The position numbers were made by a program, and so were the translations under genes. A DNA stretch of 64,000 nucleotides from Schmidtea polychroa (Eukaryota), in NCBI GenBank assembly GCA_044892525.1, contig CM097886.1:33108001-33172000 (forward strand), given 5' to 3'. Numbering within the stretch: position 1 is the stretch's first letter; every line of letters starts with the position of its first letter. Below, piece after piece: positions 2,787-37,409 of this stretch. The notes beneath the pieces are model-generated. The model saw only the letters and a program-made list of their open reading frames with translations. It did not search any database and had not been told where the DNA came from.

Positions 2787-5700
2787 AAGGTAATAATGAT
2801 GATTGTGTGCGCCAAGATAAGTATAGTATATTTTTTAATAATAATAGTAATAGTAATTTAGACAGTATGTATAATTTTAAAAGTAGTAATAATAATTTAG
2901 ACAGTATATCTAAATCAAATTTAAAGGTAAAAAATATTAGATTTAAATCAGATGTAATTTTAGAAGATAGTATTAAAAACGTGAAAAGTAAATTAAAAAA
3001 ATATGATGTAATAAAGGAAGATTATCAGAGTAACAGTAAGATTATATATGACGTACGAGATAAAACTGATATTAATGATTGTAATTGGATGCGTGATAAA
3101 ATTAATGTAATTGAAAATAAATGTGATCAGAATTGTAAGAAGATAATAAGTATTTGTGAGGCAAAATTAATAAATAGCAGTAAAAGGTTTGTTTATGACG
3201 AAACATTGGATAAACATATAAATAATATTTCTGTTTTAAATGACGATTTAGAAATTGTATATGATAAGATGGGTGGAAGACCAAGCGTAATAGTTGGGAT
3301 TAATAGGATTTATTTCAAACATTGTCTATTGGATACGGGGGCTAGAATGAATGTAATAGATAGCTCGATCATCAAAGAAATAGGTGAGATAGATATTAAA
3401 CCTCACAATGAAGGAATTTGGTGTGCAAATGGCAGTCCATTGGAAACATTTGGCAATGTTAAATTGAAGATTCAAATCGGTAACAAAGAAGAGAATGTGA
3501 TTTTTGTTGTTGTTAAAAAGGTTTCACCGTCAATTATTGGTGGGATAGATTTACTTCGTCAATTCAACATCAAGTTAATGAAAATAAACGATAGTATAAC
3601 TGAAAATACGGAAATAGAAAATAATTTTAATGAAATTTGTAATATTGAGGCAAGATTTAGCAACTCATATAATGATGAGAAAAGATTTAGTCGAGCAATA
3701 AAATTATTTGATTTAAAAAAAGGAGATAAAATGTATCAGATAATTAATGAAAATAAAGAAGTTTTTATGGCTGATAAATGGGACATTGGAAAAACAGATT
3801 TATTATGGCACGAAATCAAAACTACTGAGGGCCCAATTTACATGAACCCTAGACGACAACCGGCTCATTTAGAAGAAAAAATTGAGGAAGCTATAAAAAA
3901 TTTGGAAGAAAATGGTATTATTAGGAAATGTGATTCGAGTTGGAATACTCCATTGGTATGTGTTTGGAAAAAAGAAAAGAATGACATCAGATTGTGTTTG
4001 GATTTTAGAAACCTAAATAAAATAACAGAAAGACAAATATTTCCAATGCCTAATATTGAACAAATGTTAGATTCACTCAATGGATCCAAGTTTTTTAGTA
4101 CTATAGATCTTGGAAGTGCATATTATCAAGTGGAGTTAACAAATAATTCACAAGAAAAAACCGCATTTTCAACAAGGAGCGGACAGTACTGTTTTAATAG
4201 AATGCCTTTTGGAATTGCTGCGGCACCGGCTACATTTCAAAAACTAATGAATATGGTTTTAGGAAAACTTCTGTGGAATACAGCTATTGTATATTTGGAT
4301 GACATATTAATATTTTCTACAAATAAAGAAGAGCATTTTAAAAGAATAAATGAAGTATTAATGAAAATTAAGGAAGCGGGATTACGAGTAAATCCAGAAA
4401 AATGTATATTTTTAACAAATGAGACAAAATTTTTAGGCCATATAATTAATAATGAAGGTGTGAAAGTGGATGAAAATAAAATTGAAGCAATTAAAAATTT
4501 TGTAAGACCTCAATGTTTGAAACAACTAAGAAGTTTTTTGGGGTTGTGTAATTATTATAGAAAATTTATAAAAAATTATTCAATGTTTTCACGAATATTA
4601 GAGTCTATATGTGGTACGACTAATGAAAAACTTATATGGTCAGAAAAATGTGAAGAAGCATTTGAAGAATTAAAAAATGCATTATCGAAAACACCAGTAT
4701 TAATATACCCTAACTTTCAGAAAGAATTTATTTTGGACACTGATGCAAGTTTTGACACAATTGGTGCGGTTTTATCACAGTTAGACGAACAGGGACATGA
4801 GCGAGTAATTGCATATGGTTCGCATTCAATGAATAAGCATGAAATAGGTTATTGTATAACAAGGAAGGAGTTATTGGCCATTTATTATTTTACTCAACAT
4901 TTTAAACATTATTTGTATGGGAAAAAATTTAAATTAAGAACGGACCATAAAGCAATAACATTCATGATGGCAACAAAAAAGCCAATCACGGCACAATTCC
5001 AAACTTGGATAAATTTTCTTAGCAGTTTGGATATGGATATTTCATTTAGAAAAGGTATGGAACATACCAATGCAGATGCATTATCCCGAGATAAGTGTGG
5101 ACGATGTACTCAATGTATGGAAGTTCATGAAAATCCTAAAACAGAAAAAATGAAAACAAGACTTTTAACAATGACAGCTGTTAAGCAAGGTGTGATTTGG
5201 CAAAAGGGTAATGTTGAGATAGAAAATCAAAAAGAATTAATCATGAAAAATGTAAAAACTAAATTTAAGATTGATGATGATGTTATCATGACAAAAGAAA
5301 ATAAAATTTGGATTCCTAAAAACAATCGCGAAAAATTTATCAAAGAAATGCATAAAATCCTATGCCACGCAGGTTGCAAAAAAGTGATTGACTACATAAA
5401 AGTAAATTATGACATGGATGAATTACAAATGATAACTACAGAAATTATTCAAAATTGTGAATTATGTCAAAAAAGAAAAACACTAACAACTAAAACAAAG
5501 GAAACTATACTAAAAACGGAAGTGTCGAAACCGTTTGAAACAATTGCTATAGATTTTTGTGGACCTTTGAAAACAAGTGTACATGGGAAAAAGTATATTT
5601 TAGGAATTATTGATATGTGCACTCGATATATTTCTCTTACAGCAGTTTCTAAGCAAGATGAGAAAACAACAGCGGACACAATAATGAAATTTTGGATTCT

Positions 5701-6334
5701 AAAATACGGTTCTCCTAGGATAATTCAAGTAGATTGTGGGAAGACATTTGAATCAGGTGTGATGAAAGAATTAGCTAAAACCCATAACATAATGCTTCAA
5801 TTTTCAAGTCCATACCATCATAGTGCAAATGGATTAATAGAACGGCAATTTCGAACAATAAGAGATTTCATGAGTACCTCAATTAAAGATAGATTAAAAA
5901 GCAATTGGGTAGAGGTATTACCAGAAATTGAATTTGCTTTGAACGCAACCGTACAAAGTACATTAGGGAAAAGTCCAGCGGAAATAGTATTTGGGTTTCG
6001 AATAACAAGAGAATGGCAAAACAAAAAGGAAGTTACTAATGACCGAATTAGAATCATTGAAGAGATACAAGAAAAGCAAAGAAATGTTAAGTACAGAAAC
6101 GCAGATAGAATTAATAGAGAATTTAAAATAGATGACAACGTTTTAGTAAAGATAGACACAAGAAAAAAAGAAGATGATAGATACAGAGGACCTTTTCGAG
6201 TGATAAAGAAACTACATGATAGAAGTTACGAACTTATGGATAAAGAAGGTAAAACAATGATTCGAAATGTAGAATGGCTAAAGCCTTTTAAACAGGGGGG
6301 ATGTGAGGAAGATTTAATTATTAGCACAATATAA
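2729..6334 (+). CDS. pol: Pol polyprotein (protease, RT, RNase H, integrase), probably expressed as a gag-pol fusion
   Basis: Motifs LLDTGA (protease); LCLDFRNLN, MPFG and YLDD (RT); LDTDAS and ELLAI (RNase H); H-x4-H/C-x2-C plus IAIDF, IQVDCG and GLIERQF (integrase); GPF motif. No stops from 2729 to 6334. Confidence 0.97.
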   Translation, partial: WTPKWEGSIIRRDDRSHALKGNNDDCVRQDKYSIFFNNNSNSNLDSMYNFKSSNNNLDSISKSNLKVKNIRFKSDVILEDSIKNVKSKLKKYDVIKEDYQSNSKIIYDVRDKTDINDCNWMRDKINVIENKCDQNCKKIISICEAKLINSSKRFVYDETLDKHINNISVLNDDLEIVYDKMGGRPSVIVGINRIYFKHCLLDTGARMNVIDSSIIKEIGEIDIKPHNEGIWCANGSPLETFGNVKLKIQIGNKEENVIFVVVKKVSPSIIGGIDLLRQFNIKLMKINDSITENTEIENNFNEICNIEARFSNSYNDEKRFSRAIKLFDLKKGDKMYQIINENKEVFMADKWDIGKTDLLWHEIKTTEGPIYMNPRRQPAHLEEKIEEAIKNLEENGIIRKCDSSWNTPLVCVWKKEKNDIRLCLDFRNLNKITERQIFPMPNIEQMLDSLNGSKFFSTIDLGSAYYQVELTNNSQEKTAFSTRSGQYCFNRMPFGIAAAPATFQKLMNMVLGKLLWNTAIVYLDDILIFSTNKEEHFKRINEVLMKIKEAGLRVNPEKCIFLTNETKFLGHIINNEGVKVDENKIEAIKNFVRPQCLKQLRSFLGLCNYYRKFIKNYSMFSRILESICGTTNEKLIWSEKCEEAFEELKNALSKTPVLIYPNFQKEFILDTDASFDTIGAVLSQLDEQGHERVIAYGSHSMNKHEIGYCITRKELLAIYYFTQHFKHYLYGKKFKLRTDHKAITFMMATKKPITAQFQTWINFLSSLDMDISFRKGMEHTNADALSRDKCGRCTQCMEVHENPKTEKMKTRLLTMTAVKQGVIWQKGNVEIENQKELIMKNVKTKFKIDDDVIMTKENKIWIPKNNREKFIKEMHKILCHAGCKKVIDYIKVNYDMDELQMITTEIIQNCELCQKRKTLTTKTKETILKTEVSKPFETIAIDFCGPLKTSVHGKKYILGIIDMCTRYISLTAVSKQDEKTTADTIMKFWILKYGSPRIIQVDCGKTFESGVMKELAKTHNIMLQFSSPYHHSANGLIERQFRTIRDFMSTSIKDRLKSNWVEVLPEIEFALNATVQSTLGKSPAEIVFGFRITREWQNKKEVTNDRIRIIEEIQEKQRNVKYRNADRINREFKIDDNVLVKIDTRKKEDDRYRGPFRVIKKLHDRSYELMDKEGKTMIRNVEWLKPFKQGGCEEDLIISTI
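2735..2777 (+). promoter_or_regulatory. -1 programmed ribosomal frameshift signal (C CCA AAT + stem-loop)
   Basis: The pol frame is -1 relative to gag and open from 2729. Heptamer CCCAAAT at 2735-2741 is in X XXY YYZ phase, then a 5-nt spacer, then hairpin GGCTCC-ATCAT/ATGAT-A-GGAGCC at 2747-2777. Confidence 0.75.
6290..6301 (+). promoter_or_regulatory. Polypurine tract
   Basis: AAACAGGGGGGA directly before the TGT of the 3' LTR. Confidence 0.85.
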
Positions 6335-6532
6335 TATTATAATAATAAATTACATCTGAATTATTACTATTAAGAAATTAACATATACATATATTAAAGT
6401 ATTATATTCGTATTATATTATGGCGTACATAATTATTATTGTTATTTAGAAATGCTTAATCGTCAATTTAATGATTTGTTTAGTCAAACCGATATTGTTA
6501 TAATTTTTGAATATAATTTGAATTCGACTTTA
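6302..6532 (+). repeat. 3' LTR, lacking its last ~13-15 nt
   Basis: Identical to the 5' LTR up to ...TCGACTTT (6531), then diverges; terminal GTTTTATTTAACA is absent. Confidence 0.9.
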
Positions 6533-9500
6533 CCTTCAAATGATTTGGAGTACAAACATCTAATTCTTCGATGCATAAATGATTTTGAATTCGCCAGAGG
6601 AAATTTTCTCCAGGTTCAGTGATCATAAATTCACTTTTTAATTGATCTTCGTAGTCATCTAGAAATTCATCACATTTATTTTTTAACCACAAAGTAACGT
6701 TCTCATCATTATAAACTCCAGACGTGTTATATTGTTCAGCATTATGAGGTTCAAATCTAACAAATTGTGGAATGTTATTTGTCCATAATTGTCCATATTT
6801 GACCATTTCTTTACATAACTACAAAGATANNNNNNNNNNNNNNNNNNNNNNNNNNNNNNNNNNNNNNNNNNNNNNNNNNNNNNNNNNNNNNNNNNNNNNN
6901 NNNNNNNNNNNNNNNNNNNNNNNNNNNNNNNNNNNNNNNNNNNNNNNNNNNNNNNNNNNNNAGGGTTCCCTCCATCCGAATTTTACTTTTTTTAAAATTT
7001 TTTTTATGAAGTATTTAATCTTTTGTACTTATCGTTCTATATTACTTATAAATGGTTTATGCTATTGTCTTTTATCATAGTTATGTAAACATATTAATAA
7101 ACTGAATCTTACTCCTGTCCAAGAATACCCTGGATATTAACTTTAACATTAACTCCACGTTCTAACGGGGTTGGTGAAGCGAAGCGAACAAGGACAGAGC
7201 CCCTAATAATAATATTAATAATAATATATTTAATAGAAATTTTTTGATTATGAATCAGTAAAGATATCGATGTTTTTTATATCTTTAGTGATTCATAGTC
7301 AAAAACTTCTAAGAAATGTCAATTGAAAAGAAATCAGAGATGAAAATTGAAAAAAAGTTTTTATAATAATAATAATACAAGTATACAATATTGCCGATTC
7401 AACTCTATTATAAGTTAAAAATGCTAAAGATAATCGGCTGCACTTGTAAACAGTTTCTGTGTATCTACTAATTTTTTAGTTCACAGAAGTGATTATGATT
7501 TTTCATACGAGATGTTTATAAGTTTGACCAAGGTAATTTTAAGTGATGCGATTTCCAGTGTACCAGGGAAACTATGCAATAGAGTTGAATCGGCAATATT
7601 ATATACTTACCTGGCGCGAAGAGAAATCTTTGCGTCTCCTGCACAGTACTGATGAGAACCAAAAGCTCGAAACTAGTCTACTATTGGGATTTGCACTGGG
7701 TATCAAAAATCTTATTCTATTCAAGTGTAAGACATCCGACAAAAAACTTTTACACCCTTACTTTATAATGTAAATGACATGCATTCAATCAGTAACAATA
7801 GTGGGGTATATTGAAAAGGATTATTTTGTATTCAAAAAGTCTATTTTAATATAACTTGCAGCAAAGACTTTTCAAATGTTTTAAAATTCCTTAAAACTTG
7901 TCATTATCACTTAATAAAATTACAAATGAATGAAGTCATTCTTGTGATTTACTCGAAAGATTTTAATTAGCTTAATCTTTGAAAATATGTACTCACATGG
8001 ATAAAAGATTTTCAATATGGTCGAAAGGAGTCTAAGACAATATCTCCCAAGATTAAAATTCTGTTGGTTGGTGGACTGGAACTAAATAAAAGTAAGTCCT
8101 GACTGTTGGTTGTTTTGTAGTGATCTGGTAAAACGAAATCTTCGGCATATAATGGGACTGGAACCGGATTATTTATTCGTTGTCAGATGCGCCGAAGAAT
8201 ACGTCTTAGATGGTAAACAGTTGGCAATTATTTTTCGTGAAGTCGACCTACAACTTGATTACCAAGAACTTTTACTTTAACTTTACTAGTCTTTTGAATC
8301 TCGACTTTTCTCACACTCAAAGGAAACAACCCAATTTTTTAGATATATTTGTTTTACTTAAACAAATCCTTCGAGTAGTAGCTTATCTTGTCCCTTTTAA
8401 TACATAACATAATATAATATAATATAACAACATAACATAGAATATTAACTGCTACAATGTACCAAAATAAATCATATAAACTTCCAAACTTTAGCTATTT
8501 ATAGTGTATTTATCAATTTACATTTCCAGGTTTAAAAATTTTATTATTGTCCGGAGGAATATTGTCTTGATACAGATTAATAGAAATCAAACATAAGTGA
8601 GTATAATAGTTGTTTCACGCTTTAGACTACTGGCAAATTAAAATTTAAAAGTACTTCTGCTCAAAAAATGCTTAACGAATGAAAAGATAAATAGAGGATC
8701 ATCCCAATTTCTTTCTTCATCGCAACCCAAACGTCTTTCATATACAGAAATTTCGGGCCAACAAGCAAATTTTCCCCCATGAGGGAAAATTTGCATGTTA
8801 ATTAACATGTTGATAAGATAGTAGCAGATAATATATAATTTTATCTAATAGATATCTAATAGATAACTCTATCAAAAATCAATTAAAAAATGTCTATGTG
8901 GAGCATATGGAGTCTATGGAGTCTATGTGGAGCAAGATAAAGTTACTAATCAAACAAATGAAAGGATTATGTAAAAATTCTCTCTAATGAGTTTATGTTT
9001 AAGAATAATGTTTGTCGTTATGATTTTCAACATTTAATTGATTTAATAAAATCTGATCAACCTTATTTTATATTTATTTTAGTTTTATATTTTGTTCTAT
9101 TATTCTTTAATTATCAAACAATTATCTTTTAATTACATCAGAGGGAAAATTTGCGTGTTGACCCGAAATTTAAATAACTTTTCTATATATACTTCCATAT
9201 TCAATTTTCGACGCTCTTCAAAGTCTTTAACATCCTTTTCTTTAGACCGTCGTTATTTTCACATTGTAAGATATATGAATTGATTACAATGTTTATGAAA
9301 GCATTTGTAGTGGTTGCTTATGAGACTTCTTCGAGATACATGCAAATGTTTAAATATGACGACTATTTCGTCTGAATTGTTTATGACTGTTGATAATCTA
9401 GTCTTTCTTTTTCTGTGAAGATGACTATTGCTTTTATGTCAATAATTCAATGACCAGGAAGTTCAACTGTGATGATAGATGGTTTTCGATTAAAATAAGT

Positions 9501-10490
9501 TTTGTTATTCTGTCAAAATTGTTATACAGTATATTTCTTTCGAATAAAGAATGATATTCAATAGATAGTGATATAATTACATATCAGACAACACAGACTT
9601 ACAACTTGAAACCATTTGCGCTCACACATAGGACAAAGGTTAAGAGATTCTTTTCGTCACCCGAATTCATTAATCACAATTTGTGATACAAACTAATAAT
9701 TAGACTTTGTCGTTCATCGGAACCTTCGAAGGCGTCAAATATGACTGAAATTTTATCTGTTTCATAAAAGTTAAATTAAATGGTTTCCTTTATGATCGAC
9801 CACAAATTTTATGAATATAATCATCTTTAATTTCAAAAGTCCGAAGTCACTATAAGCCTGATAACTTGATTTCACTTCACAAATTTAAAGATTCATTTCA
9901 TTGAATATTGAATGTTTTAGTAGAAACCCGATAACCAACTTCCGTTGCTCAATAACATTGGACTTAAAATGGACATTCGTTACTGAGCAATAGAATGCCA
10001 TCATCCTCATTATCACTTATCCGTCTTTATTGGTTCCTCTTCCATAAATTCCTTTTCATTCTTCCATTGAGTATTCTGACTCATTTGGGCTTCGCAATTA
10101 TATTTTACCACTTGAAACCTACGTAATATACGGCGACTTGTAAAATTAAAATGGTAACTGTTAACTCCACAGGTTATTATTATTATTTGTAAACCAAAAT
10201 GTTAAAGTTATTCCAATAAAATAAAAATGAAGAAAAGTGAATCTAACCGAATCAATTGCAGTCGTAAGAAAGGTATCTGATCTGGAAAACTGTATTTTTT
10301 TAGTTTTAATGTCTCCTCTTGTACTTAACCGATAACTTCCCTTTTCAATTGTCTGAGAAGGGTCCACCAGAGACACTTGATAATTCAGCTCTGAAACCAA
10401 AAGTCTACATAAGCTACATGCAAAATCAGTTTCATAATTCAAAGATTCATTTGCAAATAAAATTAATATAAAAATTGATAACATTTTCAT
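6498..10490 (-). CDS. CNPY2: Canopy/CNPY2-like ER saposin-like protein; exon 1 10490-10248, exon 2 6818-6534 (or read-through to stop at 6498)
   Basis: Signal-peptide-like N-terminus, then CSLCRLLVSEL..VDPSQTIEKGSYR..FSRSD, matching CNPY2 CGACRALVDEL..VDPKKTIQMGSFR..YARSE. The phase-0 intron TCG|GTTAGA...TTTGTAG|TTATGT joins to LCKEMVKYG..KCDEFLDDYEDQL..LC..C. The exact paralog is uncertain. Confidence 0.85.
7486..7702 (+). mobile_element. PLE-type 3' end/pLTR repeat, copy 1 (homologous to 36637-36869)
   Basis: Shares long exact blocks with the 36.7 kb copy and contains a hammerhead motif. A PLE RT relic lies ~500 bp downstream. Confidence 0.65.
7644..7683 (+). ncRNA. Minimal type I hammerhead ribozyme motif
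   Basis: AGTA-CTGATGA-GAAC CAAAA GCTC-GAAAC TA GTC^TACT. Intact core, 4-bp proximal stem I, stem II with one A-C mismatch, palindromic stem III (ACTAGT), cleavage after 7678. Confidence 0.8.
8210..8400 (+). pseudogene. Degenerate Penelope-like RT C-terminal fragment
   Basis: Translation LNLDFSHTQRKQPNFLDIFV resembles the PLE RT NLKFT.E.....NFLDI motif; heavily decayed. Confidence 0.4.
9141..10130 (-). mobile_element. Degenerate pogo/Tigger-type DDE transposase relic in CNPY intron 1
   Basis: Minus strand gives ETDKISVIFD...NSGDEKNLLTFVLCVSANGFKL (about 9602-9770), matching the pogo DDE_1 pattern DET..FD...G.EK..T.VL..SA.G.KL. Many stops; edges approximate. Confidence 0.55.
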
Positions 10491-11208: not shown

Positions 11209-12187
11209 TGTTGAGGATACCTAAATAACAAATTTACAAATAAATAAAATTACTTATGGGAAGATTGTCATGACAAACGGGATGATCTATGGGGACTCAG
11301 AAAAGAAAACGGAAGTATAAAGAAATGAGAAATGAGAAAGAGGAATGAAACAAAATAAATCAGATATGATAGCAAAAACAAAGTTCAGTACTAATTAATT
11401 AGTACAAAAAGGAAAAGGAATTTTGACATCGGGAAAATAGAAAAACAACAATATTCTTATCTCGACAGCTTGTTATAGATATTCGGGATCAAAACGAAAA
11501 CTGGCCGGAGCCGCAAAAGAAAATTAGAAAATATCTCGACAGCTGTCAAAGATAACTCGTTCGCAGGAAAAATTGGGAAATCATGTTGGAGAAAAAATGG
11601 GAAATTGAAGATAAACTGAAGTGCCACAAATTAACGAAATATAAAAGGAGGTAGCACGACAGAAGCAGACAAAAATATAGAGAGAACAATTTAGAAAAAA
11701 AGTTAGAAGGAACAATCGAGAAACAAATTTGGGAAGGACCAGTTAGAGGAAATTTTGGGGATAATTTAGGGATATAATATTTAATTTGGAGAATTTGAAT
11801 AAAATTGAAGTGGAGAAATTAAAGAGAAAACAGAAATAAAGAGAAGCAGCAAAAGTTTATTTAGTGATAATAGAGTAAAGTTTAGTGAGTAAATCCAAGT
11901 CAAAATCAGAAAACAACAATCAGAATACAACATTACCAATTATTACACTCCTTAGTTGTGAGAGATTTGTCGAATCAAGGTTATACACGTATGCTATTCC
12001 TCACCATAGTATTGTAATAAACACTGTATAATCGATTGTTAGCTTGTTGAGCCAATTGTATCATTGTGAAAATATTTGTGATATTTAATAAAGTTTCCAG
12101 TGTTAATTGTTATTTGTGGGTCAGTCAAAGAAACGCTTGGAGTCAGAGTAAGAATTCTAATCTTATCACCAACCCAATAACACAACA
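11209..12187 (+). mobile_element. Solo LTR, family B (979 bp)
   Basis: TGT...ACA ends, 4-bp TSD CATT/CATT, AATAAA near the 3' end; homologous to 13611, 33813 and 41327. Confidence 0.88.
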
Positions 12188-12579: not shown

Positions 12580-13610
12580 ACCCATGGTTTTAGGTTTATA
12601 TTAGTTTTTAAAATCCCGAGATCAAAAATTATGACCGGGATTGAAAACCCGAGTTGAAATAAACGAAGTCATTTATAAATTAACAGAGAAATGTTTAAAT
12701 GTATTTAAAAGTTCTAATTGTGATTTTAAAATATCAAATACATGTGTTGAGCCTTGCGAACGACATGATGAATGCATTAGAATTCCGAATTAAGGAAAGA
12801 AGAACCGATTTATCAGGTTTGTTGCAATATTTGCACAGTGGTTATGCTAATAGTTCATCTTCCTCCACTGACCTATTCCGTGCTTTGAAGAAAATCACGA
12901 TAAAGAGACTCTTATTGAATATGGTGCAACGACTATTTATATCAGAATCAGATAATGAAAATGACGAACTAGGACAGCAGCATAGCGACGAAAATGTTAG
13001 TATGGAAGTTTCGATAGTAGAAGAAACCGAAGACGACGCCGATACAATTAAGCAACAAATGCAAAGAGCAATTGATCAGCATTTGGCTGTACCTGACAAA
13101 CTGAACACATTTTCTTCCGCATCTTTAATAATAGAAAAAACTTTAAAACGTGAGCTTGCTCAATTTGAAGATGATGGAAATCGCAGTAAATGGTTGGATC
13201 TTTGTTATGACACATTAAAATCAATTCCTCCTACCAGTGTGGAATCGGAGAGGGCGTTTTCCGTATCCGGAAACTTTTGTACAAAACTGAGATCATGATT
13301 AAGCGATGAAACGATTGATAATTTATGTTTTCTACGAGCTCATTTTAATAAAATTTAAAAACATATTTTTCGAGAATTTGTCTAATAAAACTTTAATATT
13401 GTTTTGTTAATGAATTATATTTTTAAATAAATATTATCTTTTTTATACATGAATTAAAATGAAAAAAAGGTAAAATTGAAAAAAATTTTACAAAAAATAG
13501 AAAAAAAGCAGTTACTTTTAAAACCCGATTAAAAACCGATTAATCGGTTTTAGTAAAATTGAAAACCGAAAAATCGGTTTTTACTTTTACAATACTTTTT
13601 GCAATCACTA
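12580..13610 (+). mobile_element. hAT transposon 3' remnant with truncated transposase
   Basis: ORF 12699-13298 ends IPPTSVESERAFS..KLRS*LSDETIDNLCFLR (hAT dimerisation domain with a premature TGA, probably from CGA). Subterminal AACCGA/TCGGTT repeats and terminal GCAATCACTA at 13610. Confidence 0.85.
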
Positions 13611-14585
13611 TGTTGAGGATGCCTAAATAATAATTTATAAATAAAATTACCTGGGGAAGATCTTCATGACAAACGGGACGATCTATGGGAACTCAGAAAA
13701 GAAAATGGAAGTAAAAAAAATGAGAAATGAGAAAGAGGAAGGAAACAAAAGAAATTAAACAAGAAAATAAAATCCAAGGTCAGTACTAATTAATTAGTAC
13801 AAAAAGGAAAAGGAATTTCGAAATCGGGAAAATAGGAAAAACAACAATACTCATATCTCGACAGCTTGTCAGTGATAACAGAACTGCTGGGAGAAGGTGG
13901 TTAAACAAAAAAGGAAAAGGGAAAATAACTTGACAGCCGTAGAGATAAAAATGGAACAGTCGGCGAAAGCGGGAGAAAGAAAGTGGAAAGCACTTGATTA
14001 TCTTGAGTGCCACAATAGAAGCAAGCTATATAAAGAGAAACTATTAGAAACAAAAGGAGACGAAAAGCGAGAATAAAGCGAGACAAAAAGTGCCGCGAAA
14101 TTGAGACGATTTGAAAGATAATTTGAGAGATAAAATTATTAGAAAAAAATTAGACAACGTCGAACGAAACGTTATTTGAGAAACGATTTGTGGAATAGAA
14201 TTGTAAAGAAAATAATTGTGAAGAATAATTATTGGAGAAGATTTGAAGAAAAGAATTAGTTGAAAATTAAACGAATAGAAGTTACTTGAGTATTTGAATA
14301 AATTTGTTAAGAAGGTCAAAGAAAACAAACAGCTCAAAGTCCCAGTTTATAAACCAATCAGTAATTTGTGATCTTTTAATCCGGTGTTATACGCAAGTGC
14401 TATTCTCACTGAGTGTTGTAATAATATAGTTGTAATAATATAGTCACCAAGCAGAGTGTAAAGTGAAAGTTTATTTGTGATTGTCAATAAAGATTTCTGT
14501 TGTCAATTGTTATTTGTGAATCGTATAAAAACTCGTTTGGAGTCAGAGTAACATTTAAATTTATCACCAATTCAATAGCCCAACA
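13611..14585 (+). mobile_element. Solo LTR, family B
   Basis: TGTTGAGGAT...GCCCAACA, homologous to 11209-12187. Flanks ACTA/AATT do not form a TSD; abuts the hAT end. Confidence 0.8.
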
Positions 14586-15238
14586 AATTTGTAACTTGCA
14601 GACTCGCTTCTGACGAATGTCCAATTGGTTAGTTTTTTAATTGATTTCAAATAAAGGTTAAAGAATGAAAACCGTGAGGTATACGGAAACCGATAATTAT
14701 TTATGGATCTATTTTAATGTCAAAAGATGAATAGAAGTAGAGAATTGAAGAAAAAATCTCTTTGGTCGTCCTAATGTCTGCCGCGCGAAAGTAGGTACTT
14801 CACCTTGAGAGAGAGAGTTATGGTAGAATATTGTTATTTTTATATTTTATTATGCACTAAATTTCAATAACAATAATTTACGAGTTCATTTATTTTCATC
14901 ATTTTAGGATATAAATTTATGTAAAATCGAAAATAATACTTTGATTTATAATTTGAAAGAATTAAACGAAATTGTAAATGAAAACCGACCAAAATTGACG
15001 AAGTTAAAACATTTTAATGACAATAATTTATAAATAAATAATTTTTATTTTTTAACATGAATTTTCTAAATATGTTTGTTAAATGCATTTTCATGAATTG
15101 ATTTACAAATTCTGTAGTTTTTTATACTTCACCAGCATTACTGCATAGGGTTATGTTATTTGTCAATTGAACTTAGAGTTTTCTGCCTGATTATCTGTTG
15201 TAGTTGGAGTTTTTCGTGATTTGTACCTTGGTAATAAG

Positions 15239-16130: not shown

Positions 16131-18181
16131 CATTTATACATGGAATTCATCTACTTATTACTGAGCATAAAAGATCAATTTCTAGAAATGACTTTTATAA
16201 AAGAAATATAATTAAAAATAATTCTTGATATGAACTCAAAATAACTAATAATAGTAAAATGAAGTAAATGATTATTTGACAAATTTGTTTTCAAAAATCT
16301 GCGGAGGAAAAGGATAAGAATATAAATAATTTTTATTCATTTATTTTTTTCTTATTTTGTAAATCGATGATAGCAATTTGTAGAGGAAATTGTTACGAAT
16401 CGAATGAAATTCATCGAGAATACTCATGAGAAATCGTAAAATTGTTTTTCCTAGTAGATCACTGAAATCTATTTGTAAAGAAACTTTTACGTACAATTTT
16501 GCTCCATACGCCTGCCACATCAATATAAGTTTCATTTGAGAATATTACCTTAAATGTATTTATACCAAAATTAATTTTAACTAGAGATCTAAATTTTATG
16601 AAAAACACTGTCCTTATCTAACTTTTTGTCAATTCAACAAAGGAATTGGCATTGGAAAATGAGCCTTTCTCTTCTTACTGTAAATAACTACCCGGTAGTT
16701 TCCGGGTAAAAAAAAATAAGAAAACAAAAATAGTTACTATATGTTGTTATTATAAGAAATTTTGGTTAATTTTTCAGTCTTATTACTCCGTTCCTAAAAT
16801 CATCAGAAGAAAATCTGAAGTATGAAGCATTTTCAAAGAGAAAGACAAAGCTAAATGCTATGATTGTGGAACGCCTAAGTTTTAAGAGGGTCAATAATAC
16901 AGGTTTAATTTACCATCTCAAACTCAATAGTATTTATATTAACACGTTAAACGCAGCAATACTAAAAATCAAATGTATTGTACATCTTATACGATTCGCA
17001 CGGCGATCAAAGTGTTAATACAGTTCAACTGTCATTGTTAAGGTCGGCAAATTAATAGTAGCGTAATTTTAGCAACTATAAATTTCTAATATTTAGGTTT
17101 TAAAATCTACCTAAAACTTCAAGTTTGATACCAGTCACTGATTTTTTCTTTCCTGCCCTTCATTTTGACTGGTCTTCTTCAAAATATAAATTAGGTGAAA
17201 CAACAATAATTAATTAAACTTACCTTAAGAAATTCTTTAAAATAATGAATTTCATTAGAAAATAATTAACCATTTGCGCTATATTGACGTGATATATCAT
17301 GATTTTTTTCAGAACTGCAAGTGACGTGCATACCACGTCGATAGTATTTGTCGCAAAAACCAAAACGACGTTCATACAAAAGTAGACTATTGATTAATAA
17401 AATTTATTGTTGTTGTGAATAATTATTTATATTCGTGTAAATCTTTTATTTAAGACCCTACCCTCGCGCTAAGTACTGGTCAAACCTCTGAGTTCGCTGA
17501 CGCAGTGAGGCGTAGATGCCTTACGATACTTTATATAGTAAAGCGCGGCTCAGCTACCGAAAATTAAATCATAACGCAAGTGGTTAAGAAAAAACAACTT
17601 AACAAAACTGAAATAATAAAGATAACATGTATTCTCCATGATAACTTGATCAAATAAAAAAAATATTACTTAATTAAATTAACTAAAACATTTTTTTTAA
17701 TATGATTACTTGTAAATTATAGGCAATATTAATATATGAAGTTTAAATTTATTAAAAGTCATAAAAGTTTTTATGAGAGTAAATAATTCTAATTTACTTT
17801 AATTTTTAATTTACAATATTCCTCAAATAACAAAATTAACTTTCTAATACACTTTAATTCATTATATTAAAATACGAGAAAAAGTTTATAAACTAATAAT
17901 TTAAATTAAGTAATGGATTTTTGATTTCATAGTAATATACTTTTTGTTTTGTTATTACATAAAAGTAATTTATTTACATTTGTTTTATTATAGTAATTGT
18001 AATTAATTTTAAATAATAATTTTCGAATAAATAAATCAATATAATTTTAGTTAGTTTTGATATAATAAAGTAAATAAATTAAAATATTAAATATTTATAT
18101 CATAAACTTTTTAATAATATTTCAGTAATATTAGTATTTGGCCGAATTTTCAAAACAATTACTATTGACCAATAATATATT

Positions 18182-18649
18182 ATGGCATCTCGAATGAGCA
18201 AAGATCGTTTGACAACTCTAATGAGAAAATTTAGAGACTTCCTTAGCAATGTAAACTTTTAATTTATATTATCTTAATTTTAATTCAATATTAGCGAGTT
18301 TATAATAATTCAATGAGATACGAAGGTTTGATTGCCCCAAGGTCAGTTCCACCAGCTAATCTTCCTGGAGGAGTTCACCATAAGTTATCTGACAATGATT
18401 ACTTAAAAAGAGATGCAAGAAATATAGTTGGCCATCCAAAATTAATACATCAAAGTAATATGCTAGTCATTGAACCAGGAAAAAAGTATTATTTATTTAT
18501 CAGATTATTCAAAATAATATTTATAAAGACCTGAAACAGAAAATAAGGAATTACCCAAAAGTTTTCCAACTCCAGGAAATGTTTTTCATTGGGATGGTCC
18601 ATCAACTGAGCTCGAAGGACTTTGGTATAAATATGATTCAAAGAAATAA
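18182..18649 (+). CDS. NDUFA7: NADH dehydrogenase 1 alpha subcomplex subunit 7; exons 18182-18250, 18295-18485, 18529-18649 (126 aa)
   Basis: MRYEGLIAPRSVPPANLPGGVHHKLSDNDYLKRDAR matches NDUFA7 [35 protein letters not shown]. Two GT-AG introns (44 and 43 nt) restore a 381-nt frame ending PTPGNVFHWD..KK*. Confidence 0.9.
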
Positions 18650-18828
18650 TGATGTAAAGAAATTTAGTGATTGAAATTAATAAATTTAGTTTGCACTTGA
18701 ATTTTTATTTGACTTGATTTGAAAATAAATTTGTCTTTATAGCTTTAATATTCTATTTTACTTTTTATTCTATTAACTTCGCTGATGTTTGTATATGCAA
18801 CGCAATTTTGTGAGGCCAAATTAACATA

Positions 18829-20770: not shown

Positions 20771-22600
20771 ACCCAAGATTTTTTTTAGAGGGAGAGGAGA
20801 GTGTTAATTGAAAGAAGGGCTTATAGTTAAAGAGGAGTTTTGCGCCGCAGGCGAAACATTTTTTTGGGTCCTTTTTGGAAAGACGATTTAATTAAATAAT
20901 TAGAGCTCATTATACAATATAACAGTATAAATCATTATAAAATGATAGTAATGTTTTAGGGACAAATGTGTATAGCCGACAAGCAAAACAATTTTTTCGA
21001 CCCCTATATGAATGGGCGATTTACTTAGATAACTAAAGTTGCTTGTTTATACAGTATATTATTAGCGAGGGAGAGGCAGAAGGGATTGCTAAATAGGTGA
21101 AATGCAGGTAAATAATGTATTTAATGCAATAAGTAAACAAAACAAAGGAGCTTTATTACATAAAACCACAAATCGATTATTTCATTTGAATACAATTTCT
21201 TGTTAAAATTACTAAAATATAATTAAATATTTAGCAATGCAGCAAAAACTGTAAAATATATACAGTATTAAAAACTAAAAAATTGAGAATATGTACATTT
21301 AAGCTGAAAACTTACCAGCTATGAAAATCCTGAATTTAAATTTTACAAGTTTTAAATTAGAAATTAGAAATTCTTTTTTCTTGCTTTTAAGTTTGCAAAC
21401 TCATTGAGTAAATCTGCATAATTCATTTTCGCTGCTTCTTTGTGTTCAATAGATTGCTTTGGCCAATAGAATTTCTTTTGTGTTCCTTTATAATTTTCAA
21501 TTTGCTAAATGAGCGTTCGACACCAGCTACTGTAACCGGAAGTGTCAAGAAAACATGAAAGCTGTATATATTTCAGAAAATTCACTTTCTAAACAGTTGT
21601 ACTTTGTGAGAAGCAGGTTAAAAAAAGTTTTTATAGTCATTTTTTCATTTAATTTTTGTCTTATTAGACAAATTGCATCCAGAAACTGAATGTGAAACTC
21701 TGAGGTGATCACTTCTGGGTATTTCTTTTCGAAGTTTGAGCATAATTTTAAAATGTCTGCTTCAGGCAAATTGACAATGTTTTTAGGCTCAAGAAATCCA
21801 AAATTTTTAACAATTTTTAAACAATTTATAAACAATTTTTAATAAATTTTAACAATTTTTCTTAACAAAATTTTTAACAAACGCTGCTTAATCTGAGCAT
21901 TTATTTTGTCCAAAACGAAATAAAATACTTCAACTTTGAATAATTGTTCCTTGCTGTCAAAGTGATAATCTGAAGCTAACTCATCAAAATGTCGTCGAGT
22001 GCATGGCTGTCGTTTTGGTTGAAAATAAGTGTCAATTCTCCACTTTTTGGCTTGTTTTACAACTTCTAATTTCAGTTGTTCATACGATTTTCTAGAGTCT
22101 TGGATATTCTCACTGACACGATTTAACACAAGAGACGCTTCATCTAAGTCAATGTCTTTCTTATGCAGACTTTTGGATGCATAATTAATTTCGCACATGA
22201 TTTTATATAAAAATATACTCATAAAAAATCTAATGTCTCCATCTTTTTCTCTATTTGAATTGCCTCATCTCGCCCTTCCTTTTTCTGGATTTAAGACTGA
22301 TTTCATTCAAAGCTTTCAATATGTCAACAAAACGAACTGTAACAGTTGCTAGGGACTGTATTCTACCTGACCAACGACTTGGATTAAGGTTTTTTAAGGT
22401 GATCTGTGGCTCGCCACTAAATTCAGAAAGAAGATCCCACCTCTTTATACTGTTTCCAAAAAACGCATATATATTGTGAAGAGTGGAAAAATATAACGAA
22501 ACTGCGTAGCAGTCACTAATGCAGTCATTAATTACTAAATTGAGATTGTGACTGGCGCAATGCACATACTCTGCATTTGGTCGAATCCGTTTAATCCTTG

Positions 22601-23423
22601 TGATTAATTGTCGATGCTCGCGTCTGTGTGCGCTTTGTACTGGTTTTTGGAGGTTTTGTGTGCGCACACAGACGCGGACAATTGTGAATATAATTATGAT
22701 TTATTTTTGAGTTTTTATGGTGTCGATTTGTTTTGTGTTCCTTGCTGGATTCGAATTGTGAGGGATTGTTAGAGTAAGTGAGTTCTTGATTGTATCGGTT
22801 TTAGATGGTTTTTAAAAAGGAGTTTTGATCGAGTTGAATTTTGGTTTCGAGTTGTTTTCGAATTTTTGAATTTCTGTCCTGTTGGGAAAATATATGATTT
22901 TTGATATTATGCATTATAACTCAATGAAAAATAATGATGATGCCTTGAATGCTTTTCATGTTATTCGTTATAACTCAATGGAAAATAATGATGATGCCTT
23001 GAATGTTTCTCATATTATTCGTCATGTTCCTGTTGGAAATACTACAAACGAAACTGATGGTTCCTTTCTTATGACTCTAAAAGATCCTGATAATTTTAAT
23101 GGTGTTTTTGGCCAACTAATATCAAATTTATTTGGTGGATTGCTGCCGCAGGATTTTAGATCCGATTCGTCCGATTACATGTTTTCAGATCAAAGTTTTG
23201 ACAAGTGTGTAACGAGTATTAAGAATCAATTTGAACAAAGTGGTCCTCCACTAGCAAATAAGGCAGATATTGAGAGATTACAAGTCAAGAAAATCACCGC
23301 AGCTAATGATACAGGTTTCATTTGTATGTCAGATTATGAGGTGGCCGATGAAGTGTACAAGTTGCTCCGTCGAGAAACGCGGACGATTATACTACGAACC
23401 AATCTTCAAAGGACGATTAAACA
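22601..23423. mobile_element. 823-bp TG...CA element with 5-bp TSD (solo-LTR-like or TIR element) carrying a host gene fragment
   Basis: TSD CCTTG at 22596-22600 and 23424-23428; imperfect 12-bp TIR TGATTAATTGTC/TGTTTAATCGTC; removing it restores the transposase codons VQTRIK. Confidence 0.75.
22882..23365 (+). pseudogene. RNF126/RNF115-like RING E3 ligase fragment, truncated in the RING
   Basis: DYMFSDQSFDKCVTSIKNQFEQSGPPLANKADIERL..FICMSDYEVADEVYKL resembles RNF126 DYAWG..[45 protein letters not shown]. The first RING Cys reads Gly and the rest of the RING is missing. Confidence 0.75.
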
Positions 23424-24482
23424 CCTTGTTTGTACACCATTGTACACACCACCCATGACACTAGCCCCATCATAGCCCTGTCCATAGCATTTTTCTATTG
23501 GAATATTCATTTCCATCAGTATCTTCATTACCTGATCACTCATACCTTTTGCAAAATGGTCCTTTAATTCATAAAATCCTAGAAAGGTTTCAATTTAGTG
23601 AATTTTCTCTTTAATAATATGTCACTAGACAATGCAAAGTATTTAAGAATAAATAAATAAACAACATTTAAAAATAAGTAATTAAAAAGAACAATATATA
23701 AATATATTTATGAAAAAGTTAATAACTTAAAATTCTATTCTATTCAATAAAACAAAAAATTAAGATTTTAAATTTAAAATTTTCTAAAAGTAATTTTTGA
23801 TCAAATATAAATTCAAAACTATTGCTAATAAATTGAAATTCGGAAAATAATTCCTTAAAATTGAATCAAAAATATTTCTAGTGATATGCAGTTTATTAGA
23901 TAATTTGATCGTAGAGTTTTTCAAAATAAATATTGACTTTACCATAATAAATCAACATAAGAGTAGTGACATTTTTCCTAAGTCACCAAAAATTTGCCCT
24001 GATTGTTTAAAATACGATGTTAGAGAAAATTGAAATTCTAATTTAATTTTAAAATTTATAAATTTATTTCTAGACTTTTCATTAAGCCGCAATTTAGGAA
24101 TTAAAATTTCCATTTAATTCATAAATTTCATTTTTATACATTTTAACTCAGGTGTCTGAGATGTTAGGAAAAATGAAAATAACAATAATACAAAATTAAA
24201 GATATAATTAATGTTAATAAAAATTTATTAAAATATAAAATTTAACTGCTTACATGTCTATTAAAACAACAATTTTTTATGTTATTTCAGTTTTGTGCTT
24301 ACTTCAAATAAATATTGTTAGATGTTACAAGAACATCTTCTAAATGGTTTTCATCTGATAAACTTGAAATAGAAGATATAATCCAAAATACATTAATAAT
24401 CCAATAAAATTTAATTTTAAATCGAACTTTTAAAATCAGTTTTCAGCTTTGAATCAAATCTTTTTTAAATATTTATCTAAGA

Positions 24483-24512: not shown

Positions 24513-24659
24513 ACATAAGTCGTATAGTAAATTGCTATATTTTATTAAACGCACTTGAATTTTCAAAAGTAATTATACATCGTAAACATATATTACATGT
24601 TATAAGGAAGTGAAAACCTGCATCTTTTAAATTTCCCTGCATTTTAATAACTCTTTTTT

Positions 24660-24848
24660 AATTAACAATGACCTTTATTTTAATTCCTTGTTTGTTTTCA
24701 TTTATTTGATTTATCTTTCTCATTTTTTATTTCTTTTTACTTCTTTTTTCTTCTCTGAGTTCCCATAGATCGTCCGTTTGTCATGACGATCTTCCCCCAG
24801 ATAATTTATTTATTTATAATGCTTTTTATCATTTAGGTATCTTCAACA
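24660..24848 (-). mobile_element. Family B LTR 5' fragment
   Basis: Reverse complement of the LTR start (TGTTGAAGATACCTAAAT...CATGACAAACGG...CTATGGGAACTCAG); inner edge approximate. Confidence 0.8.
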
Positions 24849-33812: not shown

Positions 33813-34742
33813 TGATGGGTTATGGAGTTGGTGATAAATTTAAATGTTACTCTGACTCCAAACGTGTCTTTATACGATCCACAAATAACACTTGACAACA
33901 GAAATCTTTATTGATAATCACAAATAAACTTTCACTTTACACTGACAATAAATTCAACACTCGGCTTCGTGTCTATAAACTGCTTATTACAACACTCAGT
34001 GAGGAATAGCACTTGCGTATAACACCGGATTAAAGATCACAAATTACTGATTGGTTTATGAACGGTGACTTTGTGCTGATTGTTTTCTTTGATCTTCTTC
34101 ACAAATTTATTCCAATACTCAAGTAACTTCTTTTCTTTTAATTTGTCAACTAATTCTTTTCTTCAAATCTTCTCCAATAATTATTCTTCACAATTATTTT
34201 CTTTACAACGTTGTATAATTTTTCTCCAATAATTTTATCTCTCAAATTGTCTCTCAAATTGTCTTCCGAATTGTCTCAATTTCGAGTCACTTTTTGTCTC
34301 TAATTTTGTCTGATTTTGTCTCTGCTAGTTTCTCTTTATAAAGTTTGCTTATATTGTGACACTCAAGATATTCAAGTGTTTTTCTCCTGCCTTTTTATCT
34401 CTGATGGCTGTCAAGATAGCTTTCATTTTTCCTTTTTTGTTCAACCGCCTTCTCCCGGCAATTACGTTATCACTGGCAAGCCGTCGAGATAAGAATATTG
34501 TTGTTTTCCTTTTTTCCCGATTCCGAAATTTCTTTTCCATTTTGTACTAATTAATTAGTACTGACCTTGGATTTTATTTTCTTGTTTAATTTCTTTTGTT
34601 TCATTCCTCTTTCTCATTTCTCATTTCTTTTTACTTCCGTTTTCTTTTCTGAGTTCCCATAGATCGTCCCGTTTGTCATGACGATCTTCCCCAGGTAATT
34701 TTATTTATTTATTTATAAATTGTTATTTAGGTATCCTCAACA
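33813..34742 (-). mobile_element. Solo LTR, family B (930 bp)
   Basis: Reverse complement of the 11209/13611 family; 4-bp TSD CCTT/CCTT. Confidence 0.9.
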
Positions 34743-34859: not shown

Positions 34860-35280
34860 ATACTCCAATATACATGTTCATTTTCAAATTCATAATAACA
34901 CATAATCATTTTATTTCTGAATAATAACAGTTTTTCCGTGTCCATACCAGGAGATAATGTCATCATTGAACAACCTAATGGTCGCATCTCGGTTGATTGG
35001 GTAGAAAACTGCTTAATATCCGCAACAGAACGACTTATTATATCGCAAGGCATTTCATATCCATGTTTATATCTAAATCGAGCGGCTTCCATTTTTGCAC
35101 GACATACTTGAGATCGATAATCAGGGATCATACCAGTCATAACACTTCCAGTACTTTCAGTAATATTAAACAATCTTGTAGCTGAACTCTTCTCAATCAT
35201 TTTATCTGGAACCTGTCTTTGTGTAGCTACTACATCACAATAATTGCATCGAATATCCACGGAAAGCAATCCACCACATA
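34860..35280 (-). pseudogene. PSMA6: Proteasome subunit alpha type-6 fragment, decayed
   Basis: GGLLSV..TQRQVPDKM..TRLFNITES.GSVMTGM..DYRSQV.RAK.EAA.FRYKHGYEMP.D...VADI.Q..TQ..EMRPLGC matches PSMA6 about aa 35-140. The N-terminus is missing, conserved sites are substituted, and homology frays downstream. Confidence 0.85.
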
Positions 35281-36636
35281 AATTTGATATCATTTTATTC
35301 TTTTCATAATTAATTGCCGCCATCTTTTCTAACTCTTTACCAAAATTCATAAACCGAAATTCGATACCATTAACACCATTTAATTATAAGATAACGCCAA
35401 TCAAACATTTTTTTCACGATTAATTTCGACAGTTTTCCTGTCATCATCAGGTGGGATATAATACTCATTAAATAAAGGATTTTAAACAAATTTAATTATA
35501 TATAAAAAATTTTTTATTTTATAAAAAATATTATTTTTTAAAACTTTAACATTTAAAATTTAATTTAATAATTTAAAAATTTAAAAAATTTTTTATTAAT
35601 TATTTAATTTAACACAACAATCAATACATACAATACACAAAAGCTTATTTAAAAACACTCAACACACAAGTATTTACAGCATTCTGCACATTAATTTTCG
35701 GATTCAATGATTTTATCAACAACGCCTCACAAATCACACGTTCCCAATAACTATCAAAGTTTTTTAATAAAATTTTAAAATCAGACATACCTATTTTAAT
35801 CTTACAGCCCTTATTGTGCTCACCAATATGGGTCAAAGACTTCGGTCTACAATGTTCTCGAGCTCGAATACAGAGATGACGGGAAGTCTCTCCAATGTAT
35901 GTGGCATTACACCCATTACATGTAAACTGATAAACGAGATCGGAGCACAATTCAACCGGAGTCTTTGACTTATTAATAAACATATTGCGTACTTTCCATG
36001 AAGTTGACACTATCCCTTAGTTTAAATTCCCTAACTGCTTTCTTATCTTCACTTTATAATCCTTAAAACCTTCTGAGTACGGCAATACTAACACAAATTT
36101 AGGCTCATCGTCCTTGCTCACACTATTTAATTTATTTAACTCATCAGACTCATTCACCTCAACAAAATCACACACAGATTTTAACTCATCAGACTCACAC
36201 ATCTCAACAAGATCACACCCAGATTTTCTCAAACATGGATCCTTAGGATTTTTAATAAATTTGTCAACAGTCTCTTTCACCATAATTACTAAAAAGGATT
36301 TTGAATAACCATTCTTCATCAACAGTTCAACCAACACGTCAACACTCTTTACCGAATTTTTAAAAGTAGAAGACAAAGACCATGCACGATAAATCAATCC
36401 CTTCACCATATTTCTTTTATACTTGAATTCACAAAAACTTTCGGAAAAAAAAAATTCACAAAAACTTTCGTTTTTGCATTATATGAATAGTCTACATAAA
36501 AACATTGTATTCACATGTGAAACGGAGAAAAAATCATCGCTTGCTTTCTTGGATTTGTTAATACAGAGCAAAGAGAAACACTATGAGATAGAGATTTATA
36601 GAAAACCAACTGATACTGGTCTCTATACTTTCCCGC
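35280..36636 (-). mobile_element. 5'-truncated Penelope-like element with inverted 5' segment
   Basis: Minus 36444-35645 is one frame with a single TAA: ESFCEFKYKRNMVKGLIYRAW (RT thumb)...VYQFTCNGCNATYIGETSRHL..RAREH..EALLI..P.IN (GIY-YIG). Plus 36461-36636 encodes the preceding RT part FLHYMNSLH..FLDLLI..YRKPTDTGLYTFP. Confidence 0.9.
35415..35453 (-). ncRNA. Minimal type I hammerhead ribozyme motif at the PLE 3' end
   Basis: CAC-CTGATGA-T-GACAG GAAAA CTGTC-GAAAT TA ATC^GTG. Perfect 5-bp stem II, palindromic stem III (ATTAAT), only 3 bp of stem I; ~190 nt downstream of the GIY-YIG stop on the same strand. Confidence 0.75.
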
Positions 36637-36869
36637 AGGTGATTATGATTTTTCATAAGCCATGTTTACAAGTTTACAGATTTTTTCTGTGACCAAGCTA
36701 TTTTGCAAGCGATGTGATTTCCAGTGTACCGGGGAAAGTATGCAATAGAGTTGAATCAACAATATTGTATACTTACCTGGCGCGAAGAGAAATCTTCGTG
36801 TCTCCTGCATAGTACTAATGAGAGCCAAAAGCTCGAAACTAGTCTACTATTGGGATTTGCGCTGGGTAT
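36637..36869 (+). mobile_element. PLE-type 3' end/pLTR repeat, copy 2 (runs into an N gap)
   Basis: Homologous to 7486-7702. Its start translates VIMIFHKPCLQV, reminiscent of a GIY-YIG C-terminus. Confidence 0.65.
36810..36849 (+). ncRNA. Hammerhead ribozyme motif with core G5A change
   Basis: TAGTA-CTAATGA-GAGC CAAAA GCTC-GAAAC TA GTC^TACTA. Perfect stems I and II, but CUGAUGA reads CUAAUGA. Confidence 0.75.
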
Positions 36870-37409
36870 NNNNNNNNNNNNNNNNNNNNNNNNNNNNNNN
36901 NNNNNNNNNNNNNNNNNNNNNNNNNNNNNNNNNNNNNNNNNNNNNNNNNNNNNNNNNNNNNNNNNNNNNNNNNNNNNNNNNNNNNNNNNNNNNNNNNNNN
37001 NNNNNNNNNNNNNNNNNNNNNNNAGAAGAATCTTAAATAAGATAATTTCATTATTGCAGTATTTGATGAAATATTAATTGAATTCATAATTTAATTTTAA
37101 AATAGGATTTTGTGAATTTTAATGTGATAATGTTTATAAAATTATATAAATGTATATAAAATTGTCTGATTTTCTTAGGTTTGAAATTTACAGCTTTTTG
37201 TCGTGATTTCTTTTTGTAAAAACAAATTTATTAGCTCTCAAATAATTAACTTCACAAACTCTCATTTCAAATTGATTAATTACTAAAATATGATTTTTAT
37301 AAGTAATTATTAATAATAAATTAGCATTGAAATATTTGAGATTATAGGAAAGAAATTTTATTAATTTCAAATAAAATTTGATAAAGAAAAAAAAGAAAAT
37401 ATGTGGGTA

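Follow-up and report, generated by a model that had tools for sequence, protein, structure and literature searches.

A decayed RNF126/RNF115-like gene fragment within an 823-bp TG...CA element inserted into a hAT transposase relic of Schmidtea polychroa

How a piece of a ubiquitin ligase gene came to lie inside a small mobile unit that itself interrupts a transposase gene is the question raised by one locus in a 64,000-nucleotide stretch of the Schmidtea polychroa genome (hereafter, the window). The window is AT-rich (GC 19–33%) and holds intron-bearing NDUFA7 and CNPY2 genes amid Gypsy, Penelope-like, and hAT relics. The NDUFA7 (B14.5a) gene (18180–18650) contains two introns of ∼45 nt each, and the CNPY2/MSAP-like gene (PF11938) comprises at least two exons (6532–6818 and 10248–10490, minus strand). 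A young Gypsy element at 1379–6531 has open gag and pol frames and LTRs that are identical over 231 bp. Its 3' LTR lacks the last ∼15 bp and adjoins the end of the last CNPY2 exon, the frame of which continues into the LTR; no target site duplication (TSD) was seen around this element.

The initial annotation described an 823-bp unit with TG...CA ends, a 12-bp imperfect terminal inverted repeat (TIR), and a CCTTG TSD that splits the transposase cleanly, and each of these features was verified. The non-autonomous element (22601–23423, no strand assigned) is flanked by the 5-bp repeat CCTTG at 22596–22600 and 23424–23428 (both plus strand), and its left TIR (22601–22612, plus strand) and right TIR (23412–23423, minus strand), with end motifs TGATT and TGTTT, are complementary at 10 of 12 positions. 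Such a pattern is by itself no proof of insertion and is not rare in the window, where we counted 12 combinations of TG...CA, TIR, and TSD at spacings of 100–5000 bp, the candidate included. The breakpoints were fixed independently of the element ends, however, by the spacing of the hAT protein, which is restored exactly when the insert is removed. Among 65 hAT homologues, 42 matched the motifs flanking the insertion (the 23 unmatched ones were dropped), and the distance between these motifs was 25 residues in 41 of the 42 and 26 in the remaining one; in the window, 75 nt separate the motifs after subtraction of 828 nt (the element plus one TSD copy). At breakpoints fixed in this way, the chance expectation is ∼0.003 for the 5-bp repeat, ∼0.002 for TG and CA, and ∼0.002 for a match at 8 or more of the inner 10 positions of the TIR. 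These results confirm that the insertion is real, and an assembly artefact was ruled out on the basis of the exact TSD and the exact restoration of the hAT spacing. The flanking repeat can be extended to 6 bp, and a 6-bp TSD with GA...CA ends is formally possible as an alternative reading, in which case the symmetry of the ends is lost.

The cargo of the element is an RNF126/RNF115-like coding fragment at 22972–23373 (plus strand) that corresponds to residues 41–174 of the database protein P0001 (134 codons). P0001 is a 220-residue protein, the one near-length homologue among 16 candidates, and is 77% identical to the cargo over 131 residues. It shows a zinc ribbon plus RING-H2 layout (9 Pfam matches), RNF115, RNF126, and Iruka are found among the Atlas clusters closest to it, and the nearest cluster is commonest in Platyhelminthes (16 members with an assigned phylum). 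The identity of the cargo was taken from P0001, since the cargo alone gave no Pfam match and nothing useful in a PDB search. At the level of protein similarity, an RNF126/RNF115-like E3 ligase is thus confirmed as the source. The fragment is truncated at both its 5' and 3' sides (residues 41–174 of 220) and is followed by no A tract. It lacks the N-terminal zinc ribbon (residues 9–37), which we take to be the BAG6/ubiquitin-binding part, and apart from the linker keeps no more than the first third of the RING, which is cut after the third cysteine position.

The earlier description of an intron-free, still-open fragment of ∼160 codons that ends within the RING stood with regard to identity, end point, open frame, and lack of an intron, but the homologous part amounts to 134 codons. 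The other ∼26 codons are a 54-nt tandem duplication, seen as extra copies of the first 54 nt of the cargo at 22894–22968 (plus strand; a full unit at 22915–22968, preceded by a partial one). Immediately upstream of this tandem array, 22877–22888 is an 11/12 copy of cargo positions 23028–23039, which could be due to chance. An ATG-to-stop frame (22894–23475, plus strand) leaves the element and enters the antisense strand of the hAT, with no evidence of use. The ∼400-nt cargo contains no intron at this locus. Vertebrate RNF126 has introns within the span that matches the cargo. A second related protein, P0002, begins at the equivalent of M124 and shows unrelated residues after K187, as in a single-exon prediction; judged from these protein ends, there are hints of introns in the parent gene, but none is placed within the cargo span. 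A search for the parent gene DNA in the genome contig collection returned 226 pattern matches, of which 0 were confirmed.

We compared the cargo with its homologues to assess its decay. The cargo differs from P0001 at 33 of 134 residues, 31 of which can be explained by a single base change, and the divergence amounts to ∼12% (∼51 substitutions over 402 nt). When P0002 was added to the comparison, the 14 differences over residues 124–174 divided into 11 that are unique to the cargo, 1 that is unique to P0001, and 2 unresolved, so the change sits on the cargo branch. Two of the three RING cysteines of the cargo, both zinc ligands, are altered (C155G and C173R). The mean BLOSUM score of the changes was -0.55, compared to -0.39 to -0.49 in a neutral simulation, and the tandem units show 4 differences from the second unit, all of them non-synonymous and 0 synonymous. 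At this divergence an unbroken frame has a probability of 0.12–0.26. No signature of hypermutation was detected, the inferred single-base changes being mixed. The decay of the cargo looks neutral, consistent with genomic debris, and a working protein product is very unlikely.

The suggestion that a RING-less product could act as a dominant negative found no support, in view of the lost zinc ribbon and most of the RING, the C155G and C173R changes, the neutral-like pattern of substitution, and an open frame that is within chance. More broadly, we consider it very improbable that the cargo is functional, whether its expression would yield a dominant-negative protein or antisense or small RNA directed against the parent ligase. 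The frame is open over all 134 homologous codons, the duplications are all in-frame, and the frame of a PSMA6 chimera elsewhere in the window (see below) is open as well (P 0.12–0.19); the joint chance of the two frames is ∼0.014–0.05, which is suggestive at most, whereas either frame singly is within chance. The cargo has neither the N-terminal zinc ribbon nor a complete RING-H2, such that both recognizable domains of a functional E3 ligase are absent or broken. In addition, its frame is not closed within the element but continues into antisense hAT sequence, and small RNAs would be expected to pair imperfectly with the parent at ∼12% divergence. An argument for selection on the cargo frame from the number of frameshifts in the hAT was rejected: the hAT frameshift rate is no valid control for the cargo, because the hAT contains 20 homopolymer runs and the cargo 1.

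The interrupted transposase supplied a relative date for these events. Its part upstream of the insertion lies at 23429–23591 and its part downstream at 21367–22595 (both minus strand), the latter with at least three frameshifts and one tandem expansion; the homology ends at ∼23591, and hence this copy lacks the N-terminal ∼380 residues. The low-complexity expansion (∼48 nt, 21810–21890) holds the only stop of the hAT coding region, in a non-homologous part. No nonsense substitution was found in 432 aligned codons, compared to 6.5–8.9 stops expected at the divergence of the cargo (P 0.0001–0.0015 for none), and the 95% upper bound on the hAT divergence is 4–6%. From these relative divergences we infer that the ligase fragment (∼12%) predates the host hAT copy (<∼6%) and that it aged elsewhere and arrived later, since the hAT lacks the stops that the same amount of decay would have produced. 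The simplest reading is that the loaded element jumped to this site; a paralogue that had already decayed and was captured recently would give an equal timing signal. The proposal that host sequence was captured in an element and mobilized was supported, in that a TG...CA unit with a 5-bp TSD holds the fragment and the divergence of the cargo exceeds that of the hAT. Irrespective of the class of the element, we hold with high confidence to the combination of a real insertion, host-derived cargo, neutral decay, and capture before arrival at this site.

Other hAT-related sequences are present in the window. Three stacked termini (20516, 20667, and 20756) start with CAG and are hAT-like. That at 20756 probably marks where the host hAT ends on its 3' side, and no other end matching it was found in the window. 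A further hAT transposase, distinct from the host copy, is represented by a C-terminal piece at 12699–13340 (weak PF05699 match).

Outside of the cargo, the element is made up of a structured left end, a T/G-rich segment, and a short right arm. The left end contains a hairpin (22606–22683, no strand assigned) with perfect 15-bp arms (22619–22633 and 22662–22676) plus a 7-bp extension that overlaps the left TIR over its inner half. Folding of the leftmost 83 bp gives an energy of -23.5 kcal/mol (z -7.5), a value reached by 0 of 200 shuffles. If the unit is a minus-strand LTR, this hairpin would be located in U5. Helitrons and Helentrons, considered on account of the hairpin, were ruled out by the TSD, a rejection that rests on the TSD rule for these elements. 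Transib was ruled out by its ends, which are CAC. A 12-bp direct repeat akin to the TIR core brackets the interior, with its left copy at 22672–22683 and its right copy at 23377–23388 (both plus strand), 3 bp past the end of the cargo; the two agree at 11 of 12 positions, and the core of the right copy is seen again in the right TIR, 30 bp further on. Repeats as good as 11/12 were obtained in 1 of 300 shuffles (12/14 in 2 of 300), and no further occurrence of the 7-mer core was found on either strand of the window. The longest direct repeat common to the two arms is 12 bp.

The T/G-rich segment (22691–22893, no strand assigned, ∼200 bp) is 48% T, 25% G, and 6% C. It contains the minus-strand AATAAA (22700–22705) that had been noted ∼100 bp from the end; it was found 99 bp from the element end, though a motif in such a position arises by chance in 28% of 5000 shuffles. 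A consensus splice donor at 22774–22779 in the same segment could also be due to chance. The right arm (23374–23423, 50 bp, no strand assigned) has no ligase homology and no notable fold. An Rfam search of the window gave no match. When the window was searched for further copies of the element ends, the candidate alone matched exactly, and the near matches were at chance level (6 compared to 4.1 expected and 4 compared to 2.9 expected). The left and right arms were not seen elsewhere in the 64-kb window.

A second locus bears on the origin of the cargo. At 34937–35290 (minus strand) lies a decayed PSMA6-like fragment with an apparent RNF-to-PSMA6 junction, the first 26 nt of which match the cargo: positions 23119–23144 and 35290–35265 agree at 25 of 26 bases. 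The best of 150 shuffles reached 22/26, and 0 of 210 window tiles scored as high; when extended to 49 nt, the match comprised 39 bases, compared to 36 in the best shuffle. The cargo-like piece sits at the start of the PSMA6 homology and is joined to it in frame, microsimilarity is seen at the RNF-PSMA6 junction, and the extra spacing at the junction is missing from all 54 motif-matching PSMA6 homologues (60 hits). The PSMA6 fragment is changed at 14 of 54 near-invariant columns, compared to a mean of 0.56 and a maximum of 10 in 59 homologues. None of the 60 hits was a close PSMA6 parent, the best full-length one being 57% identical. The database protein P0131 consists of an SNF8/EAP30 fragment, a similar ten-residue junction, and the same decayed PSMA6 piece. 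P0131 and the second locus have four derived residues in common at near-invariant columns, and P0131 carries a 15-residue in-frame deletion. Part of the P0131 junction may derive from SNF8 itself, where the Pfam match reaches residue 110 and the PDB match residue 97. These results suggest that multi-gene chimeras were copied more than once.

Around the second locus, no element ends like those of the candidate were found, and the locus lies directly downstream of a Penelope-like element. This is a GIY-YIG relic (35424–35450, minus strand, and 35648–36870) with a hammerhead-like core; a second hammerhead-like core is located at 7649, in a related fragment at 7489–7703, and neither was found by Rfam at its gathering threshold. 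Both the T/G-rich segment and the element as a whole seemed to resemble sequence flanking the second locus, but this likeness was rejected, as 99 of 794 and 87 of 512 random tiles, respectively, scored equally well. Any vehicle common to the candidate and the second locus is putative.

For the carrier itself, we favor, with a probability of about 0.5, the reading that the unit is a solo LTR, lying on the minus strand, that derives from a non-autonomous LTR retroelement making 5-bp TSDs, and that the mRNA fragment was captured by template switching. Reverse transcriptase would have jumped to an mRNA of the RNF126/115 family and then returned, so that an internal coding piece, truncated on both sides, came to lie antisense in U3. 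The piece would then have decayed to the ∼12% seen against P0001 and P0002, without protein selection, and gained the 54-nt tandem duplication. Integrase would later have put the cargo-bearing element into a young, broken hAT, where the insertion with its 5-bp TSD is observed and its place in the order is our reconstruction, and LTR-LTR recombination would have left the solo unit. The same template switching may have joined the ligase piece to PSMA6 and SNF8 fragments elsewhere, at junctions that are visible in those sequences and perhaps by way of the same vehicle. Both BEL/Pao and Copia elements produce TSDs of 5–6 bp. The initial annotation had offered a solo LTR or a Ginger-type end; the solo LTR stands as possible given TG...CA and a 5-bp TSD, whereas the 12-bp TIR, the 5-bp TSD, and the lack of TGTNR do not fit Ginger. 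In the available portion of PMC10045372, the LTR signature is TG...CA with a 3–6-bp TSD, and the element has both. Similarly, the marks of LTR-mediated capture given in the accessible text of PMC5131818 are double truncation, lack of poly(A), and multi-gene fusions at microsimilar points, and the cargo is truncated 5' and 3' without poly(A). Three solo-LTR-like units of 930–980 bp occur locally and carry AATAAA 94–95 bp from the end, compared to 99 bp in the candidate. Several observations oppose the solo-LTR reading. No second LTR, primer binding site (PBS), polypurine tract (PPT), or cargo-free copy was found in the window, and the cargo does not lie between 5' and 3' LTRs, the arms having no common direct repeat beyond the 12-bp one. 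The candidate TIR matches at 10/12 compared to 5–6/12 in the local LTRs, where a TSD is visible in the local solo units (two of them) it is 4 bp long rather than 5, and the TIR-like motifs recur subterminally, which is more DNA-transposon-like. The 11/12 direct repeat around the interior and an AATAAA within chance (0.28) also count against it, and a shared LTR route is opposed by a second locus that adjoins a Penelope-like element and has no candidate-like ends. The local units (11209–12187, 13611–14586, and 33813–34742 on the minus strand, with a fragment at 24658–24848) form an A-rich family, 71–88% alike in their aligned parts and with 4-bp TSDs in two members, that is unrelated in sequence to the candidate.

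A possible but doubtful alternative is that the unit is a Pack-TIR, a short cut-and-paste element with Ginger2/TDD-like ends in which the ligase fragment served as filler during gap repair or during fork stalling with template switching and which was later moved whole into the hAT by a transposase acting in trans. Host sequence does lie between TIRs with a TSD, the 10/12 TIR is accompanied by TIR-core motifs repeated near both ends, direct terminal repeats are lacking, and capture before arrival takes fewer steps than by the solo-LTR route. Dictyostelium TDD-4/5 make 5-bp TSDs and, in the available text of PMC2836005, are alone in that; multicopy Pack-TIRs of animals move after capture and carry tandem duplications, as described in the main text of PMC8277862; and the integrase-type GingerRoot carries gene fragments, some from two genes, according to the available part of PMC6839031. 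By contrast, the TIR is much shorter than in any Ginger described there (40–297 bp), metazoan Ginger1/2 elements have TIRs of 40–270 bp, 4-bp TSDs, and TGTNR ends in the same portion of PMC2836005 (45–180 bp for the TIRs of animal Ginger2, with 4-bp TSDs also in the accessible text of PMC10045372), and GingerRoot/IS3EU TSDs are 6 bp. GingerRoot cargo keeps its introns (PMC6839031, available text), whereas the 400-nt cargo has none even though the NDUFA7 introns in this window are ∼45 nt, and the inner left motif copy has the same orientation as the right-end copies. No integrase-like transposase partner with the candidate's ends was found in the window. We regard as improbable a nested structure, in which a hairpin MITE of ∼120 bp was split by an insert of ∼690 bp (the T/G-rich segment plus ligase) with its own 12–14-bp duplication. 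An enzyme of non-LTR or Penelope type, for instance, could have made that duplication, and either the composite would then have moved to the hAT or the insert would have come from an already decayed source. That the RING fragment might be a later insert with its own TSD had been named as grounds for refuting the initial annotation, and the bracketing repeat gives it partial substance: the 11/12 and 12/14 matches at the interior borders are as rare in shuffles as stated above, the 7-mer core is confined to these two places, and cargo homology stops 3 bp short of the right copy. Penelope-like relics with hammerhead-like motifs are present, one of them directly upstream of the second chimera, and Penelope elements are able to move host genes in trans (PMC3846280, available text). 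However, the left copy has the form of the motif seen in the left TIR and the right copy the form seen in the right TIR, which fits end motifs or a fold-back and not a duplication, and the 3'-truncated ligase piece without poly(A) is unlike the L1-type retrocopies described in the accessible part of PMC5131818.

That animal LTR elements and TIR transposons capture gene fragments has been published before. Within the literature text consulted, no description of this element or of ligase-proteasome-ESCRT chimeras was found. What this case adds is a carrier that departs from published Ginger, GingerRoot, and two-LTR retrocopies, internal dating that places the capture ahead of the last jump, and signs that three housekeeping-gene pieces were fused and copied repeatedly in the lineage. 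The three captured genes so far, RNF126/115, PSMA6, and SNF8, act in the ubiquitin, proteasome, or ESCRT pathways, and there is a hint of a wider fragment-shuffling family. Going further, and as a long shot, this AT-rich invertebrate lineage might harbor a family of short integrase-type elements that time and again take up pieces of housekeeping mRNAs, join them in frame, and copy them anew, with frames staying open though residues are unconstrained, for example if premature stops lower the survival of the element RNA. If true, the element would be an exon-shuffling vehicle with its cargo inside an LTR or inside an undescribed TIR family with 5-bp TSDs, and might give rise to small RNAs that target host genes; if the family were confirmed genome-wide, exon shuffling driven by transposons could be studied tractably in an invertebrate that has received little attention.

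Compared to known systems, the solo-LTR reading has its closest counterpart in LTR-mediated retrocopies. In the accessible text of PMC5131818 (Tan et al. 2016) these are likewise internal fragments truncated at both ends, without poly(A) and with fusions at short similar stretches, and are remobilized as non-autonomous units. They lie between two LTRs, where they replace internal sequence, whereas the fragment described here is inside one TG...CA unit, and an RNA origin is putative for the candidate. Ginger2/TDD and Ginger1 elements, as covered by the same portion of PMC2836005 (Bao et al. 2010), have TG...CA termini, with 5-bp TSDs in TDD-4/5, but TIRs of 40–297 bp compared to 12 bp here; animal Ginger elements have TGTNR and a 4-bp TSD, whereas the candidate has TGATT/TGTTT, 5 bp, and no transposase. 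The integrase-type GingerRoot/IS3EU elements resemble the candidate in carrying gene fragments (79–98% identical to their parents, some from two genes), and in the available parts of PMC6839031 and PMC10045372 they differ in their 6-bp TSDs, mostly TA..TA ends (occasionally TG..CA), length of ∼8.5 kb, and intron-containing cargo. Read with TG..CA ends the candidate gives a 5-bp TSD, and read with 6 bp it gives GA..CA. The Pack-TIRs of animals, finally, share with the candidate host sequence between short TIRs with a TSD, capture followed by transposition, and internal tandem duplication; 87% of the 370 cases in PMC8277862 (Tan et al. 2021), in the main text of which the word Ginger is absent, are hAT or TcMariner, whereas the candidate combines TG...CA ends with a 5-bp TSD.
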